Shown: positions 19,307 to 25,554 of the stretch, piece after piece
Layout of the letters: each line of letters begins with the position of its first letter
Numbering within the stretch: the stretch's first letter is position 1
Source: a virus
Direction: 5' to 3' (one strand)
DNA length: 64,000 nt
IMG/VR virus record: IMGVR_UViG_3300044844_000428
The notes under the pieces: generated by a model
The model's input: the letters and a program-made list of their open reading frames with translations, nothing else
The model's database searches: none
Told to the model about the DNA's origin: nothing
Made by a program: the position numbers and the translations under genes

Positions 19307-21211
19307 TTATGCACCAACAGTTGAGAACTCAACGCTTTGACGAGTAGCGATGAAGTTTAATGTGATGTAATTGATTGAGTAGTTTGGTTTGATGTATATA
19401 TCAGCAACAAAGTTATAACTTTCAATTACAGCAGCTGTATTGTTAGTCGTGTCACAAACCACTTGGAAATCAGTAATACCACGTCTTCCTTGAATATCTC
19501 TCAAGAATGGTTCAAGCATATTTTTGAACTGTGCTCTTGTGAAAGAATCATTGTATTCAAACAATTGGTATTTTGCCGCAACTGAAATAGATCTTTCAAG
19601 AATGATGAACAATCTACGAGTTCCAATACGGTCAAAAGCAGATGGTTTAGCTAATAGAGTTTTGTCGCCGTATAACACAACACCTTGACCAGGGAAAGAA
19701 ACCACTGGGTTAATGCCGTTGCTATAAATTGCATCTCTAGCACTTTTATCTGGATTGTAAGCTAATTTAACTACATTTTTAACTTGACCGCGTGTATAAC
19801 CACCAGGAGAGAACCAAGGATCATTTGTGCCATCTGTACGAGCACATAATCCAGCAGTGTCACCATTTAATGGAATCCAACGGTAAACGTCATTATATCT
19901 GTCATACTGATATTTATAACCAGAATCAAGAACAGCATAAGAAGATGATGGAAGTGCATCACGATATGCTGAAACTTTAGCAGTAATATCGGAACCATTA
20001 CCGATTAAAATATCGCCAGTAGTATCTTCTGGAGAAGCAAATACGATAATATCTTTACGAACTTCAGCAATGTTGCTAATTAATGAAGTAACAGTTGCAG
20101 ATGATGCTTTACCAGCAGCAATGTAAGCAATAGGATATAATTCTGGGTTAGCAATTAAATTGTATGCTTCTAATTGATTTGCTGAAGTTGATGTTAAGTC
20201 ACTAACACCACCAGTCAATTGGTAGGTAGCATAAGCAGTAAGATTAGTATAAACTGTAGCACTAGTTAATGTAGTATCCCAATCTGTTGCTAATTTAGAA
20301 GTCCACCAAACGTAGTTAGATTGGTTATTCAATACGTTTTTATAGTAACTGCTTGTTCCGTTATCGGTTTTAGCATTAGCTGCTTTAGAAACAAATGGGA
20401 ATTTTTCAAGAATCGTTCCAGGAACGCCAGTCCATTCACCTTTAGAATCAATAATAAGAATATGCAATTCATCAGAGGCAGTAGTAGCACCTTTTTGTGT
20501 AGCAAAAGATGAAGTGCCAGGAGCAGTAGAGAATTGACTTACGTATTGCCAATCAGCTTTAATAGCACCGTTTGTTAATGCAATAGTAGCATTAGCAGAA
20601 AGAGTAGCTACGCTATCAGAAGTAATTGAAGCAACTGTACCAACAGTAGCACCAGTTGAATCTTTTACAACAGCGCCAACATATAATTCAGTTAAGAATT
20701 TAGTTTGAGCCGCACCTGAAGTTCCACCAGTTAAGGTAGTAGCAGATGTTAAAGTAGTAACAGTACCTGAAAGAGTAACTGCTTTAAATGTAGCAGCATC
20801 AGCAACAGCAATTGCAATAGAATTACCTAATGCGCCAGGATATTTTGCTGTAAATTTAATTGTGCCTGTACCAGCAATGAAATTTTGTTCGTATACTGTT
20901 CTGTTATTGATGGTAGAAGCAGTGCCTGAAGAAACCGCATTTCTTTGAGCAGTAGTTCCAGTACGAATGTTTAATAAGTTACTAGAATAAGATAAGAAGT
21001 TTGCTGCAGTAAACCATGATTGAGCATTGGTGTCAGTTGGTTTACCAAATTGAGCAACAAGTTCGTTTTCTGATGAGATAGTAGTAGGTTCTAATACAGG
21101 ACCCCATGAATAAGCACCAGCAACTGCGGCTGCAGAAGATGCTATTGTAGGTACAACATTAGTAAAATCCTTCTCTACAACTGCAACACCAGGAGATAAT
21201 TGGATTGGCAT
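19307..21211 (-). CDS. gp18: tail sheath protein
   Basis: SPGVAVVEKD, WGPV, PWFSPGG..RG, LYGDKT, SAFDRI..RRLF. Confidence 0.98.
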   Translation of the reverse strand: MPIQLSPGVAVVEKDFTNVVPTIASSAAAVAGAYSWGPVLEPTTISSENELVAQFGKPTDTNAQSWFTAANFLSYSSNLLNIRTGTTAQRNAVSSGTASTINNRTVYEQNFIAGTGTIKFTAKYPGALGNSIAIAVADAATFKAVTLSGTVTTLTSATTLTGGTSGAAQTKFLTELYVGAVVKDSTGATVGTVASITSDSVATLSANATIALTNGAIKADWQYVSQFSTAPGTSSFATQKGATTASDELHILIIDSKGEWTGVPGTILEKFPFVSKAANAKTDNGTSSYYKNVLNNQSNYVWWTSKLATDWDTTLTSATVYTNLTAYATYQLTGGVSDLTSTSANQLEAYNLIANPELYPIAYIAAGKASSATVTSLISNIAEVRKDIIVFASPEDTTGDILIGNGSDITAKVSAYRDALPSSSYAVLDSGYKYQYDRYNDVYRWIPLNGDTAGLCARTDGTNDPWFSPGGYTRGQVKNVVKLAYNPDKSARDAIYSNGINPVVSFPGQGVVLYGDKTLLAKPSAFDRIGTRRLFIILERSISVAAKYQLFEYNDSFTRAQFKNMLEPFLRDIQGRRGITDFQVVCDTTNNTAAVIESYNFVADIYIKPNYSINYITLNFIATRQSVEFSTVGA

Positions 21212-21289
21212 GTGTGTCTCCGTTAGGAATAAGGTTAAAATTATCTATTATAAATTTGTAGATCACATTGTAAAAGTTGGTTCTGTATT

Positions 21290-21297
21290 TATTTATA
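21290..21297 (-). promoter_or_regulatory. late promoter for gp18
   Basis: TATAAATA on the minus strand. Confidence 0.7.
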
Positions 21298-21301
21298 CTA
21301 A

Positions 21302-22993
21302 TCAGAAATTCATCATGATTTCTTTATCTGATTCATTCCCATCATTCAACCAACCAGTAGGCACCATCTGTTCATCTATAAGTTTCATTCTATCTTCATA
21401 GATTGACTTTCTCATATCAATGTTATTAAGTGCAGTAAAATATGGATCTGTAGTTAACCATGCAAAAAGGACCAATGTCATGACAAGATCATCGTGATAT
21501 CCATCATCGGCTGCATAAGAACCTTTCGATTCGATAAACGTCGAGAATTCTGCAATGATATCAGCATCATATACTAATAGTTTATTTTCTTCTATTAGTG
21601 TTTTAAGATTATTACAACCTATTCTCTTTATTTTCTTATCAGTATTGACACCTAATCTTGATTGCCCACCAAAGCCACCGGAAATACATTGACCTTTGGA
21701 ATTTCTTCCAACTGATAGTATATTTTCATATTCAAGATCTGCATGGAGAATATAACTAACTTGTTCAGAACTATTTATCTCCATAAGTACAAATGCTTCA
21801 TTATAGTCATTAGCAATTTTATAGATGACATTTGGATATAGAAGTGGACTTATGTTATTATCTCTATATTTTGCCACAACTTTATATGGAAGTTGGGTAA
21901 CATCTATAACTGTAAATGCTGAATAGTCACCACCAACACCTTTTGATGTATCCACAACCATAACATAACTATGGAATTGTATTGGATATTCAATAATGTC
22001 TAATCCATTATTGGAGTGTATATAAGAAATAGGTCTCATTTTGGACATTACATCACTACCAATAAGTGTATAAGATGAACCCAGAAAGTGCATCAAAACT
22101 TCTTGGTTGTACTTAATTTCACCTAAAAGTTGTTTCTGTTTGGCTGCCCATACTTCATTATGTAAAGGATGTTCCCAGTATTCAACTCGTTTATGAATAA
22201 ATCCATTTATATTTCGTTCTGCTTCATCCCACATCTTCCAAAAATGGTTGAAACCAATTGGTGTTGATGTTATAATAACCTTTGAAGATTCACCAGATGA
22301 GATTGTAGGATAAGTTGAAGCAAAGAATTCTTCAGCTACTGTGCCAGGTACGCTGGACAGTTCATCAAGATATAATAGGTTAACTGACTTTCCCCTAATT
22401 CCAGACGCAGTCGTGGCAGCAATAAATGCTTTGCTTTTGTTCTCTAGAGCTACTGAACCTTTATTCCATTCGACAACACCCTGTTGAAGCCATATTGGAA
22501 GTTCTTCATACATAAGTTGAAACCGTGCCATAACTTCACGAGCAGCAGCAACTTTGTTACCCAACATAGCTACATTTTTACTTTCATTGAATACACAATA
22601 CCAGACAAGATAAGCGGCAACCGTGGTTGTATTATGAGATAGAATGTCATTAGTATAGAATGTATGTTTATCGGAATCTATAGATAAGTCATACATATTT
22701 TCAGAATATCCCAAATTATCTAATCGGATGACTTTAGAGTTTCCTAACTTAGTTCTTATATGACAACCTAATGAATTCTTGGCAAATATTTCGTTATAAT
22801 CGGAATCGATGAGAATGTGTGTATCTGCGCATTTAAGACGTAATCCAGTATCTAATATTATTTCATATACTTCATATTCTATAGTTTTATTGGATGATAG
22901 TATATCAACAAAACCATCTTCAGTTTCAACTTCCCAATCCGAAACATTGATGGATTCTACGAATTTTCTAGTTACATTATCAGAAAGACTCAT
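21302..22993 (-). CDS. gp17: large terminase C-terminal part fused to a split-intein IntC (aa 1-121)
   Basis: Intein blocks KCADTH, MYDLSID and FYTNDILSHN, then TTTVAAY. Walker B LLYLDE, ITSTP, nuclease motifs VDTSKG and HDDLVM. Confidence 0.95.
   Translation of the reverse strand: MSLSDNVTRKFVESINVSDWEVETEDGFVDILSSNKTIEYEVYEIILDTGLRLKCADTHILIDSDYNEIFAKNSLGCHIRTKLGNSKVIRLDNLGYSENMYDLSIDSDKHTFYTNDILSHNTTTVAAYLVWYCVFNESKNVAMLGNKVAAAREVMARFQLMYEELPIWLQQGVVEWNKGSVALENKSKAFIAATTASGIRGKSVNLLYLDELSSVPGTVAEEFFASTYPTISSGESSKVIITSTPIGFNHFWKMWDEAERNINGFIHKRVEYWEHPLHNEVWAAKQKQLLGEIKYNQEVLMHFLGSSYTLIGSDVMSKMRPISYIHSNNGLDIIEYPIQFHSYVMVVDTSKGVGGDYSAFTVIDVTQLPYKVVAKYRDNNISPLLYPNVIYKIANDYNEAFVLMEINSSEQVSYILHADLEYENILSVGRNSKGQCISGGFGGQSRLGVNTDKKIKRIGCNNLKTLIEENKLLVYDADIIAEFSTFIESKGSYAADDGYHDDLVMTLVLFAWLTTDPYFTALNNIDMRKSIYEDRMKLIDEQMVPTGWLNDGNESDKEIMMNF
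22631..22993 (-). mobile_element. split intein C-fragment (IntC, 121 aa)
   Basis: Ends His-Asn, followed by Thr+1 of the Walker A GKT. Confidence 0.92.
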
Positions 22994-24057
22994 CTTTTAT
23001 AGGTTTCCTTAAAAAGATTCTCACAGTACTCTTTAGATGAAAGATTATTATATTTTGCCATAAGATTAGAAATATCAGATTCTTCAATAACTTCTGTCCA
23101 ACCAAAACTACCATAATCATTTTTGCGTATAGTGTCTTTGTAATCAAATTTTAATATTTGTTCTATGTAAAAAGCGTGCTTAATAGAATCAACTGCTTCA
23201 AATAATAAAACTTTGTATTTCGACAGATATTCTTTATGATATCTATGATATATTGTCGGTTTTGAGGTTATTCCAATCTTATATTTATTTTCAGAAATCT
23301 GAATGATATAAAAACTGCCAGGATCAGTAAGATCTTTATTCCATAAAGATTTAAAATTTATCTTTGTAGATTTACTTCTATTTATAGATTCAATCTCATC
23401 TGGTGATTTACTCAATAGTGTCTTTTGCCAATTCAACTGTCTTTCAGTCCAGATTTCCCGACCTCTGTTTTTGCCATGTTTAGCAATACATATTTCCAAA
23501 CTAAAAGTTCTCTGTCTATCTGACAAGGAAGTATTTGCTTCTTCAACAGTCATACCTCGAGAAGTGTAATATTCTATCTTAGTGTTATCATTATTGTTTA
23601 TATTCTTAGTGACAACCCCCTTTTTCTTAGTGTTAGTTATTCTTTCTAACATCTCATTCTCGGGGAGTTCATTATATTTTATAAATTTCTCACTAAAAGG
23701 CGATAATTTTCCTCCATGATTATGCCAGGGATTATTATCGCCTTTCATCTTATCTATTGCCTTTTGACTGTGAACTGGACCATATTTTGTTATATACTCG
23801 CCAGGAGTCATATCATGGGACAATGGATGAGTGCCAAGATTATATGATCTGAATCCACATAATGCGCATTCACTATAATTATAGGGATCAGAACCATCAG
23901 GATATTTTAGTAAAGATTTCTTGGCTTTCATCGCGCGATAATTTCTTGTTTGATATTTTGATTTGCAATTATCTGAACAGAATTTTGCATTATGATGGCG
24001 TGGTATAAATACATCATCACATTCTTTGCATTTTATGGAATTCTTCAGCAGTGACAT
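22990..24057 (-). mobile_element. free-standing homing endonuclease between the split-intein halves (Zn-finger N-terminus, GIY-YIG/T5orf172-like C-terminus)
   Basis: CKEC...FCSDNC, CALC...H...H, GSFYIIQI...YKIGIT...R, GWTE. ATGA overlap with the IntC gene. Confidence 0.8.
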
Positions 24058-24370
24058 TTAAGGTTTCTCCAGTTTTTTTATTTCGTACCTTATATATCGT
24101 TTCTTTGCCGACACACTTCCCATGCTGTCTCGGAAACATCCCAATTGATCTAGAATTGTTATGAATGGTATTGATAAAATCTATTTGGTAATCAAATAGT
24201 TCAAATGGAACTAATCCATAATCAAGAGTAATGATTTTTATGTAAGTTCTTATGAAATATATGGGGTCGGATTTGCATTTTACATATTCTTGGACTTGGT
24301 ATTCCGTATAATCGACAGAAACACCAATAGATTTTAGGTTTGGATTTGAATTGTATGTCAAAGAAGCCAT
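24017..24370 (-). CDS. gp17: large terminase N-terminal part fused to a split-intein IntN (last 32 aa)
   Basis: YNSNPNLK...EYVKCKSDPIYFIRTYIKI...LFDYQ...PRQHGK, then CVGKETIYKVRNKKTGETLNVTAEEFHKMQRM and stop. Confidence 0.95.
   Translation of the reverse strand: MASLTYNSNPNLKSIGVSVDYTEYQVQEYVKCKSDPIYFIRTYIKIITLDYGLVPFELFDYQIDFINTIHNNSRSIGMFPRQHGKCVGKETIYKVRNKKTGETLNVTAEEFHKMQRM
24020..24115 (-). mobile_element. split intein N-fragment (IntN, 32 aa)
   Basis: Cys1 directly after the Walker A Lys; block A-like CVGKET. Confidence 0.9.
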
Positions 24371-24378
24371 AATTAGTG

Positions 24379-24407
24379 TTTACTTTTTCGTATAAATAAG
24401 ATATAAT
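24379..24407 (+). promoter_or_regulatory. overlapping early-type and late promoters facing a non-coding structured region
   Basis: (G)TTTACT-17-TATAAT with TATAAATA (24391-24398) inside the spacer. Confidence 0.7.
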
Positions 24408-24412
24408 TATCA

Positions 24413-24700
24413 CATAGCCTATATAATTACTGGACAATGGGACACCAGTTGCATGAGCAGGAACCTACCCCTGCCAGATGAGGATCGGGAATTTTCCTGT
24501 ACCCTGTAGTAGCCAATCTACAAATACGTCTGCCGTTATAGCAAAACTTGCAATGCAGACATGGACGATAAAGTTCAATATTATTCGCAGGTCGGATGTT
24601 TCTTTATCAGAATTCCAGTTTTTGCATCGGACCTACACGGCGCAGTTTATATAAACCATCAATGTAGGGCTGGAAAAATACCAAATAATCTAGTAGTCAA
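24413..24700 (+). ncRNA. candidate structured ncRNA or origin primer RNA
   Basis: ORF-free, GC-enriched, serial stems ACTGG/CCAGT, GCAGG/CCTGC, TGTAG/CTACA, GTCTGC/GCAGAC, AGGTC.GATG/CATC.GACCT, CCTACA/TGTAGG. Confidence 0.55.
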
Positions 24701-24818
24701 GTGGTTGCGAACGCAGTGAGCAATCCACCATTCGTGAACGCAGTGAGCGAATTAAAAGGTCAATATTAGTATTAATCTGTTCAACCATTCACTGCGTTCA
24801 TGGTTGCGAGCAAGCTCG
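24701..24818. repeat. three GAACGCAGTGA-capped hairpins (two on plus, one on minus) and a fourth small hairpin
   Basis: Motif at 24709-24719 (+), 24736-24746 (+) and 24789-24799 (-), each closed by a different stem. Confidence 0.85.
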
Positions 24819-24828
24819 TGTATCAACA

Positions 24829-25554
24829 TTAGAATCCAGTTGGTGTATTATTTGACCATGTATCTATTATAAAAGTATCAGGTACATTAGATTTAACAAA
24901 ATAATCCAATGGTTGATTTGGTAAAGTAACATTGGCTTTCTTGATAACACCAGATGAAGTAATGGATCCAAATATATTTACTTTCATGGTAAAGTTAAAT
25001 GTATAAATTATTTCCCGTCTTGATTGAAAATCACCATCATAAGAATCCTGGAAACTTACATTATTCAAGATGATTGGTACATCGTTTACTATATTCAAGT
25101 CTGGAATAGCATTAATCGATAGTGTATAATCTGGTGTAAAGACTGGCAAGATTTGTTCAACTACTGCTAATGCATCTTCTGTTGTTTTGGTTAAAAGACT
25201 TAATTCTATATCCAGATTGTATGGAACGGGACTGAATTGAGTTTTTAAAGTAGTTTGGTCATAACTAGCAATCTTGGTCATCTTGTTGGATTTTCTTGAG
25301 GCATCGTAAGTATAACCAACAATTTCAAATGCCATTCTAGGAAGAATAGTATTGACGTTATTTTCCAGGTTTGGATCTTGTTCCAATCTAACTAGCCATT
25401 TTTCTTTTGGACCATAAGCAATTGGTACATTGATGGTTTGTAATACAGCACCTGCTTCATCCATTCGCTCGATCTGGATTTCTGAAAACATCCGTCCGAA
25501 TGCTACAATTGCTTTCTTTATAATGCCAAAATAATATGGAGGATTGTTTAGCAT
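24829..25554 (-). CDS. gp15: tail sheath stabilizer/completion protein
   Basis: VPIAYGPKEKW, LPRMAFEI, PVPYNL, VEQILP.F.P. Confidence 0.95.
   Translation of the reverse strand: MLNNPPYYFGIIKKAIVAFGRMFSEIQIERMDEAGAVLQTINVPIAYGPKEKWLVRLEQDPNLENNVNTILPRMAFEIVGYTYDASRKSNKMTKIASYDQTTLKTQFSPVPYNLDIELSLLTKTTEDALAVVEQILPVFTPDYTLSINAIPDLNIVNDVPIILNNVSFQDSYDGDFQSRREIIYTFNFTMKVNIFGSITSSGVIKKANVTLPNQPLDYFVKSNVPDTFIIDTWSNNTPTGF

Follow-up and report, generated by a model that had tools for sequence, protein, structure and literature searches.

How does a phage obtain a working DNA-packaging ATPase when the gene for this enzyme is broken in two? This question is raised by positions 21,302 to 24,370 of the IMG/VR virus record IMGVR_UViG_3300044844_000428, which was analysed as a stretch of 64,000 nucleotides (nt), in the following called the window. 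The phage is a marine, T4-like one and its large terminase subunit, gp17 (TerL), is split over two genes with an additional open reading frame (ORF) between them. In our reading, which we regard as highly probable, the terminase gene is fractured, its two products are joined by a split intein that splices in trans, and the middle ORF encodes a homing endonuclease. An earlier note on this DNA had described gp17 as two ORFs with the junctions PRQHGK|C and SHN|TTT, and both genes and both junctions were found in their places.

The fractured terminase gene

All three ORFs are located on the minus strand and are flanked by a gp15-like gene and the gp18 tail sheath gene. The N gene (24017..24370, 117 amino acids (aa) in the ORF listing) ends with ...FPRQHGK|CVGKET...HKMQRM and a TGA stop. 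Its residues 1-85 (24116..24370) are the gp17 N-extein, which carries the first half of the Walker A motif (PRQHGK). A terminase match to the N gene was obtained in PHROGs (PHROG 5989, 5e-22), and the alignment of the N-extein covers residues 7-85 of Syn9 gp17. The C gene (21302..22993, 563 aa) matches the Pfam families Terminase_6N and Terminase_6C. It begins with the 121 aa of the C-terminal intein half (IntC), ending in ...FYTNDILSHN, and continues with TTTVAAY, the start of a C-extein of 442 aa plus stop codon (21302..22630). The first residue of this part, Thr+1, completes Walker A; Walker B and the nuclease domain follow.

The conceptual splicing of N gene residues 1-85 to C gene residues 122-563 results in a product of 527 aa, which is colinear with the intein-less gp17 of Syn9 (47% identity, E 2e-179). 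At the junction, PRQHGK|TTT faces PRQSGKST of Syn9 without any gap, and the element is therefore placed between the Lys and the Thr of Walker A. The alignment to gp17 homologues, suggested by the earlier note as a check, thus bears out the insertion site that it had proposed. With the family profile, position 123 onward matches T4 gp17 from T167, and in T4 numbering the junction is K166|T167. The window holds a single terminase: no further terminase gene was found in it, nor a second copy of the intein or of the middle ORF (the profile of the N-terminal intein half, IntN, finds one copy).

The middle ORF (22990..24057, 355 aa in the ORF listing) is read in a frame that differs from that of the terminase halves. 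It overlaps the N gene by 41 nt, and a GGAG ribosome-binding site (24067..24070), 9 nt upstream of its ATG, is located within the coding sequence of IntN. The stop codon of the middle ORF and the start codon of the C gene overlap in an ATGA (22990..22993), and an AAGGA (23006..23010) is found 12 nt upstream of the C gene start. The length, the frame, the overlap and the coupling by ATGA agree with the description in the earlier note. The N and C genes share one frame, with 60 in-frame stop codons between the halves. A search of Rfam with positions 21000-25200 gave no match, terminator-like sites were not found at the locus, and promoter-like sites are no more than at the level of shuffled sequences. 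Since the three ORFs lie on one strand and no terminator-like site was found, they are probably transcribed as one late transcript.

An independent assembly of ~88% nucleotide identity (L005) agrees with the window in the lengths of the three ORFs (117, 355 and 563 aa) and in their overlaps, and near-identical N halves, C halves and middle ORFs were also found in other samples. Between the window and L005, the ratio of nonsynonymous to synonymous substitution rates (dN/dS) is 0.057 for the N gene, 0.20 for the middle ORF and 0.046 for the C gene, with values of 0.10-0.12 for the intein parts. Judged from these comparisons, the fracture of gp17 is real and all three ORFs are under purifying selection.

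The split intein

Position 1 of the intein is Cys86 of the N gene, directly after GK, and this residue is invariant in 14 N halves. These share the core C-[VF]-x-K-x-T-x-Y-x-[VI]-R-N-K-K-T-G-E-x-L-x-[VL]-T-A-E-E-F-H and always end a few residues past A-E-E-F-H; the conserved core has ~27 aa. In the window, IntN comprises 32 codons (Cys1 ... HKMQRM) and the TGA (24017..24115), that is, block A and the first helix and nothing else. By its place in the sequence the split is at the S2 position, after the first helix and following A-E-E-F-H, as defined for AceL- and GOS-TerL (PMC13014065). The atypical split into 32 and 121 aa, which the earlier note had recognised, was confirmed.

IntC (22631..22993, 121 aa) carries block B (C-A-D-T-H-I), block F (M-Y-D-L...H) and block G (S-H-N). 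In the comparison with the PDB, IntC alone matches the gp41-1 intein (2.5e-5) and CatC (1.4e-3) over almost its full length, while the family profile yields gp41-1 (7.5e-9), VidaL (6.1e-8) and CatC (1.2e-5). Among 115 relatives, Cys1, His59 of block B, Asp102 and His110 of block F, the pair His120-Asn121 and Thr/Ser+1 are invariant or almost so; the +1 residue is T in 72 and S in 43 of them, and H120 and N121 do not vary at all. By homology and by its catalytic residues, IntC is part of a class 1 intein, and splicing is predicted.

The residues aligned in block B are S-E-E-H in gp41-1, S-D-N-H in Cat and A-D-T-H here. In the C-A-D-T-H-I of the window, Ala, Asp, His and Ile are invariant among the 115 relatives. 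This block B, which the earlier note had called non-canonical, is therefore a family trait and nothing special to the copy in the window; A-D-x-H is the norm of the family.

For IntN, extended by 10 extein residues, in complex with IntC, structure prediction gave an ipSAE of 0.86, compared with 0.02 for the best control. In the calibration, 58 of 80 solved complexes attained this mark, as did 2 of 110 mismatched pairs. At least 80% of the contacts agree between runs, and the pLDDT of the partner is 79. In the predicted interface, K85 and C86 touch block B and the residues S119-T122. Since a similar complex (Cat, 6dsl) has been solved, the prediction is to be read as a likeness and not as proof of binding.

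Size and forms of the intein family

A word-indexed protein search with IntC delivered 214 relatives. In all of the 120 listed among these, IntC ends with ...SHN|T or ...SHN|S, and in almost all of them it starts at residue 1-5. The exhaustive search of 1.84 billion cluster representatives resulted in 788 matches with E<=1e-3, 478 with E<=1e-10 and 35 with E<=1e-30. Within the best 150 matches, 129 are split, and the +1 residue is T in 102, S in 45 and Cys in none. IntC lengths in the family range from 121 to 125 aa. The host proteins include T4-type terminases, DnaB-like helicases, SMC-like ATPases and an AAA_2-type ATPase, and the residues past the junction in relatives (S-T-M-L-D..., T-E-T-A-K...) resemble the continuation of a GK[ST] P-loop. 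The earlier note had called this a probably new intein. The 32-aa IntN, Thr+1, the P-loop site and the CADTH block, on which that claim was based, are all present; its weight as a novelty is reduced by hundreds of relatives, some of them in cultured phages. In the searchable literature we found no description of the P-loop split-intein family, no paper joining the terms 'atypically split', 'intein' and 'P-loop', and none on the intein of phage PhiW-14.

IntC of this family is encoded at 232 IMG/VR loci. We examined 80 of these viral loci and located both halves in ~60. At ~50 of the latter, the halves are separated by a gap of 0.9-1.5 kb with a same-strand ORF; the halves are adjacent at ~12, and a few loci have short remnants between them. 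Both halves in one reading frame were found at none of the ~60. Almost all full-length intervening ORFs (>= ~300 aa) share the DNA-binding module of the middle ORF of the window, whatever the host protein. The partner domain of this module is Vsr-like (DUF559/MTES_1575) in the majority, including L002 and L008, and T5orf172 in ~12. The intein alleles at the loci L024 and L025 are near-identical, but the nuclease gene is present in one of them and missing from the other. Its insertion point is precisely the boundary of the E-F-H codons of IntN and the start of IntC. Decayed nuclease remnants were detected in L016, L017, L048 and P0058; at L017, a zinc-finger remnant alone is left of the nuclease gene. 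One-piece forms are known from metagenomes (P0067, P0120), as are in-frame nuclease fusions or their remnants (P0054, P0058).

Two cultured phages carry the intein at the same site. Delftia phage PhiW-14 has a split copy without a nuclease gene. In its GenBank record (NC_013697; L001 3893-4360), the N half of 155 aa with a 43-aa IntN end is unannotated, and the annotated 'terminase large subunit' is the IntC-bearing C half, nothing more. PhiW-14 is thus a cultured phage with an unrecognised split-intein terminase. Vibrio phage vB_VchM_Kuja has a one-piece intein of this family at the same Walker A site, within a TerL of 749 aa (NC_048827, L089 2033-4279; ...R-Q-S-G-K|C-V-D-H...S-H-N|T-T-V-V...), and this cultured phage could provide a cis-splicing form for comparison. 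A tblastn row that suggested IntC in S-TIM4 was rejected: the gp17 of S-TIM4 is intein-less, and the row is therefore an over-extension of the alignment. The same is expected for the tblastn rows of P-RSM4 and P-SSM4; the annotated gp17 of P-SSM4 is normal-sized.

The ORF between the halves

The middle ORF is most likely a putative homing endonuclease, to judge from its domain composition of two zinc fingers, a DNA-binding module and a T5orf172 domain. We found 36 homologues, and its AlphaFold (AF2) model has a pLDDT of 86.6. The zinc fingers (23815..24030) are visible as motifs in the sequence, C10-x2-C13...C27-x3-C31 and C64-x2-C67...H77-x3-H81. They give weak Pfam matches to NinG/treble-clef families, and homologues match ROS/MucR zinc fingers with a best E of 3.5e-8. 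The helical DNA-binding module (residues 106-230, 23368..23742) contains the motifs G-x-N-N-P...H-G-G-K-L-S-P-F-S and R-Q-R-T-F-S-L-E and is the most conserved part of the alignment (A2). The C-terminal alpha/beta domain (23014..23325) is assigned to T5orf172, of the GIY-YIG superfamily, by Pfam and by weak structural matches. It shows the motifs G-x-F-Y-I, Y-K-I-G-I-T, R-Y and G-W-T-E, and G-x-F-Y, Y-K-I-G, R53 and G-W-T-E are invariant in the subfamily. T5orf172 is matched by 10 of 10 aligned homologues (best 5.3e-6), and MUG113 by 4 of these 10. The closest domain-sized folds are those of two GIY-YIG nucleases, Slx1 (Z 4.5, rmsd 4.1 A, 89 aligned residues) and At-HIGLE (Z 4.4, rmsd 3.4 A, 82 aligned). 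Accordingly, the earlier description of a zinc-finger/GIY-YIG-like ORF was supported by the motifs and the homologues, with weak structural matches. As a group, T5orf172 genes are well established as homing endonucleases of phages and are frequent neighbours of terminase genes (PMC10448857).

An informative comparison is offered by L002. Its intervening ORF (L002 3033-4025) and that of the window (22990-24057) have an N-terminal DNA-binding region of 210 aa in common, with 43% identity, whereas their nuclease domains are unrelated, Vsr-like DUF559/MTES_1575 in L002 and T5orf172 in the window. By this alignment, the pair appears to show clearly that nuclease domains were exchanged while the recognition module was kept.

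Proposed mechanism and alternatives

We propose that the transcript would carry, in this order, gp17-N with IntN, the endonuclease with its own ribosome-binding site, and IntC with gp17-C. The 32-aa IntN would dock on the 121-aa IntC and complete the HINT fold. Class 1 trans-splicing could then proceed by a thioester at Cys1, attack of Thr+1 and cyclisation of Asn121, and would release a TerL of 527 aa with Walker A rebuilt as RQHGK-TTT. Since Walker A would be rebuilt by splicing alone, DNA packaging would depend on it. The middle ORF would be selfish, keeping and spreading itself, most likely by cutting those intein gene alleles from which it is absent, a target that we infer.

Several results weigh against this proposal. 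The match of Pfam Intein_splicing is sub-threshold (21.1 bits against a threshold of 35.8), and no solved structure gave a significant match to IntN by itself; the intein search that the earlier note had called for was therefore positive for IntC, with gp41-1 and CatC, and negative in these two respects. Block B, where T-x-x-H is expected, has an invariant Ala in place of the usual Thr, with His59 kept. The T5orf172 match of the window copy is weak (E 0.004) and under the Pfam cut-off. The similarity to the GIY-YIG fold is weak as well, by the Z scores of 4.4-4.5 given above and by Foldseek, in which the top matches for the nuclease models, to Slx1, have an E of ~0.5. Finally, the rate of synonymous substitution (dS) between the window and L005 is 0.26-0.36 in IntN, the nuclease gene and IntC, as against 0.97 in the C-extein, but this may reflect general mosaicism instead of recent homing: identity to L005 is mosaic across the whole region, and gp18 and the neck genes hold equally similar stretches. 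We have set the low dS of the cassette aside as a proof of recent homing and take it as a hint of recent transfer at most.

The alternative that fares best concerns the middle ORF, which could have ceased to be a homing nuclease and be a domesticated DNA-binding protein (a regulator or a CapR-like exclusion factor) or a gene in decay. We consider this unlikely. Its dN/dS exceeds that of its neighbours, the T5orf172 score of the window copy is sub-threshold, remnants exist in the four relatives mentioned, and the domestication of T5orf172 genes is known (PMC10448857). However, the ORF is of full length and under purifying selection, the motif residues of its subfamily are invariant, its position is typical of homing endonucleases, and L024 and L025 show presence and absence alleles.

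Clearly less probable is that the halves are held together by the intein pieces without splicing, with TerL as a non-covalent heterodimer. Non-splicing assembly of a fractured gene is documented for NrdA of phage Aeh1 (PMC3045599), and a block B without the usual Thr would suit it. However, an unspliced intein of 153 aa would separate the Lys of the P-loop from its Thr. Moreover, the near-invariance of Cys1, His59, Asp102, His120, Asn121 and Thr+1 in 115 diverged relatives argues against this assembly, because association alone does not need these residues. Hardly credible is an assembly or sequencing artefact, with frameshift errors disrupting what was a one-piece intein that contained an endonuclease domain in frame. 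One-piece inteins do occur at the same site (Kuja, P0067, P0120), and in-frame nuclease fusions exist as well (P0054, P0058). However, assemblies from other samples share the three ORFs with their lengths and overlaps, 60 stops separate the halves in their common frame, the middle ORF is preceded by a ribosome-binding site of its own and its N-terminus is conserved, and one-frame halves occur at 0 of ~60 viral loci.

Within the proposal of a trans-splicing intein with a homing endonuclease, it is conceivable, although we would put it at somewhat below even chances, that intein and nuclease form one composite mobile element whose landing pad is the intein gene itself. The presence of one nuclease family between the halves, whatever the host gene, suggests recognition of the conserved DNA at the IntN end and IntC start, not of the host gene. 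On this assumption, the intein would move among P-loop ATPases that are unrelated to each other, from one set of GK|[TS] codons to another. If this is true, we would be dealing with a large and unstudied clade of naturally S2-split inteins, with Cys1, Thr/Ser+1 and an exchangeable nuclease cutting domain.

The gp16 slot

Positions 24371-24828 occupy the slot of the small terminase (gp16) in T4-like phages. These 458 nt contain no ORF of more than 80 aa in any frame, have a raised G+C content (~0.41) and gave no Rfam match. The segment is present in L005 with 84-88% identity; L002 lacks it and has gp15 directly next to the N gene. The plus strand, which is antisense to the neighbours, is predicted to fold more stably than shuffled sequences (z -2.95; z -1.6 for the minus strand) and contains a long hairpin made of G-A-A-C-G-C-A-G-T-G-A repeats.

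Significance

In this phage, the ATP-binding loop of an essential, single-copy packaging ATPase is predicted to be formed only after two polypeptides meet and splice. The locus and its relatives together show all stages of the life cycle proposed for such elements, namely one-piece inteins, split inteins with a nuclease, decaying nucleases and adjacent halves without a nuclease. Among the relatives, moreover, two nuclease domains with no relationship to each other are found in exchange for one another on the same DNA-binding module. Natural S2-split inteins with a short IntN that can be synthesised are few, and the +1 residue is Cys or Ser in the described ones for which it is stated (AceL-TerL, GOS-TerL, PolB16). 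A Cys1/Thr+1 clade with hundreds of variants and an IntN core of ~27 aa would leave Thr instead of Cys at the ligation site and would offer raw material for consensus design. For annotation it is relevant that the N halves of such split genes go unannotated, as in the GenBank record of PhiW-14, and that the IntC family is abundant in public data.

Comparison with known systems

As the earlier note had stated, fractured phage genes with an atypical terminase intein are already known. From GOS Lake Gatun, a fractured gp17 whose intein is broken at an unusual point and whose IntC has 122 aa and all motifs but N1 was reported by Dassa et al. in 2009 (PMC2677866). The layout of adjacent same-strand halves with a free-standing endonuclease gene between them is the same here. 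By length only, the IntC of 2009 is nearer to the P-loop family (121-125 aa) than to Cat (104 aa). The endonucleases named in the 2009 report are classical GIY-YIG or Vsr-like, whereas the one here is of T5orf172 type and those of most relatives are Vsr-like. In the model of the same authors, the gene invaded by the nuclease is that of the intein and not that of the host protein, and decay and loss of the nuclease can follow (PMC2677866). The alleles of L024 and L025 and the remnants in other relatives fit this model.

AceL-TerL, GOS-TerL and Cat, a consensus intein derived from these two, share with the intein of the window the TerL host, the S2 split and class 1 (PMC11766414, PMC13014065). 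In the S2-split type, a short IntN of 15-37 aa holds block A alone and IntC holds blocks B, F and G (PMC13014065); the IntN length is 25-37 aa in the AceL-/GOS-TerL type and 32 aa here. The C-terminal motif of the Cat type, Y-Y-T-N-G-I-V-S-H-N, resembles F-Y-T-N-D-I-L-S-H-N here. The three characterised inteins all have Cys+1, with Cys1 or Ser1 (PMC11766414). In contrast to the Cys+1 and S-D-N-H of Cat, the intein of the window has Cys1/Thr+1 and A-D-T-H, and it is inserted in Walker A. The best match of CatC is the intein of P0031 before Walker B (RGKS|C..LYVDE, 1.8e-13), compared with 1.4e-3 for IntC of the window. From the position of this match in relatives we infer that the characterised AceL-TerL, GOS-TerL and Cat belong to the pre-Walker-B site. 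The statement of the earlier note, that characterised TerL inteins use Cys+1 at a different site, fits this result.

By sequence, the closest solved structure is that of gp41-1 (PDB 6qaz), which originates from a cyanophage-like source and likewise from a fractured gene. Its C-terminal motif F-Y-A-N-D-I-L-T-H-N compares well with F-Y-T-N-D-I-L-S-H-N here. Unlike the intein of the window, gp41-1 has a canonical split (~88 + 37 aa), a helicase non-P-loop site and Ser+1.

The insertion position in Walker A is the 'classic' P-loop position at which one-piece inteins are found in mycobacteriophage TerL (Kelley et al. 2016, PMC5050341). These TerL1-a inteins are in one piece and reside in Terminase_1 proteins of actinophages, whereas the intein described here is split and resides in Terminase_6 (T4 gp17-type). 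Like the middle ORF, the T5orf172 homing endonucleases of ICP1, T5-like and other phages combine T5orf172 with zinc-finger modules near terminases, and their domains are modular and swapped (Barth et al. 2023, PMC10448857). Unlike the middle ORF, they are not described between the halves of a split intein (PMC10448857), and the DNA-binding module of the middle ORF pairs with a Vsr-like domain instead in relatives.

Among the relatives, up to three inteins per terminase were observed (P0024, P0031, P0084, P0011 and others), at the P-loop, at R-G-K-S|C..L-Y-V-D-E before Walker B and at N-Q-E-I-L|C-x-F-L-G-S. The pre-Walker-B intein is Cat-like and sometimes has an in-frame GIY-YIG domain at the atypical split point. 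To judge from these sequences, the T4-type TerL is an intein hotspot in marine phages. The locus of the window belongs to a known type, that of fractured genes in which a free-standing homing endonuclease gene separates the halves of an atypically split intein, and it is distinguished by the Walker A site in a T4-type TerL, Cys1/Thr+1, the A-D-T-H block B and the T5orf172-type nuclease domain.

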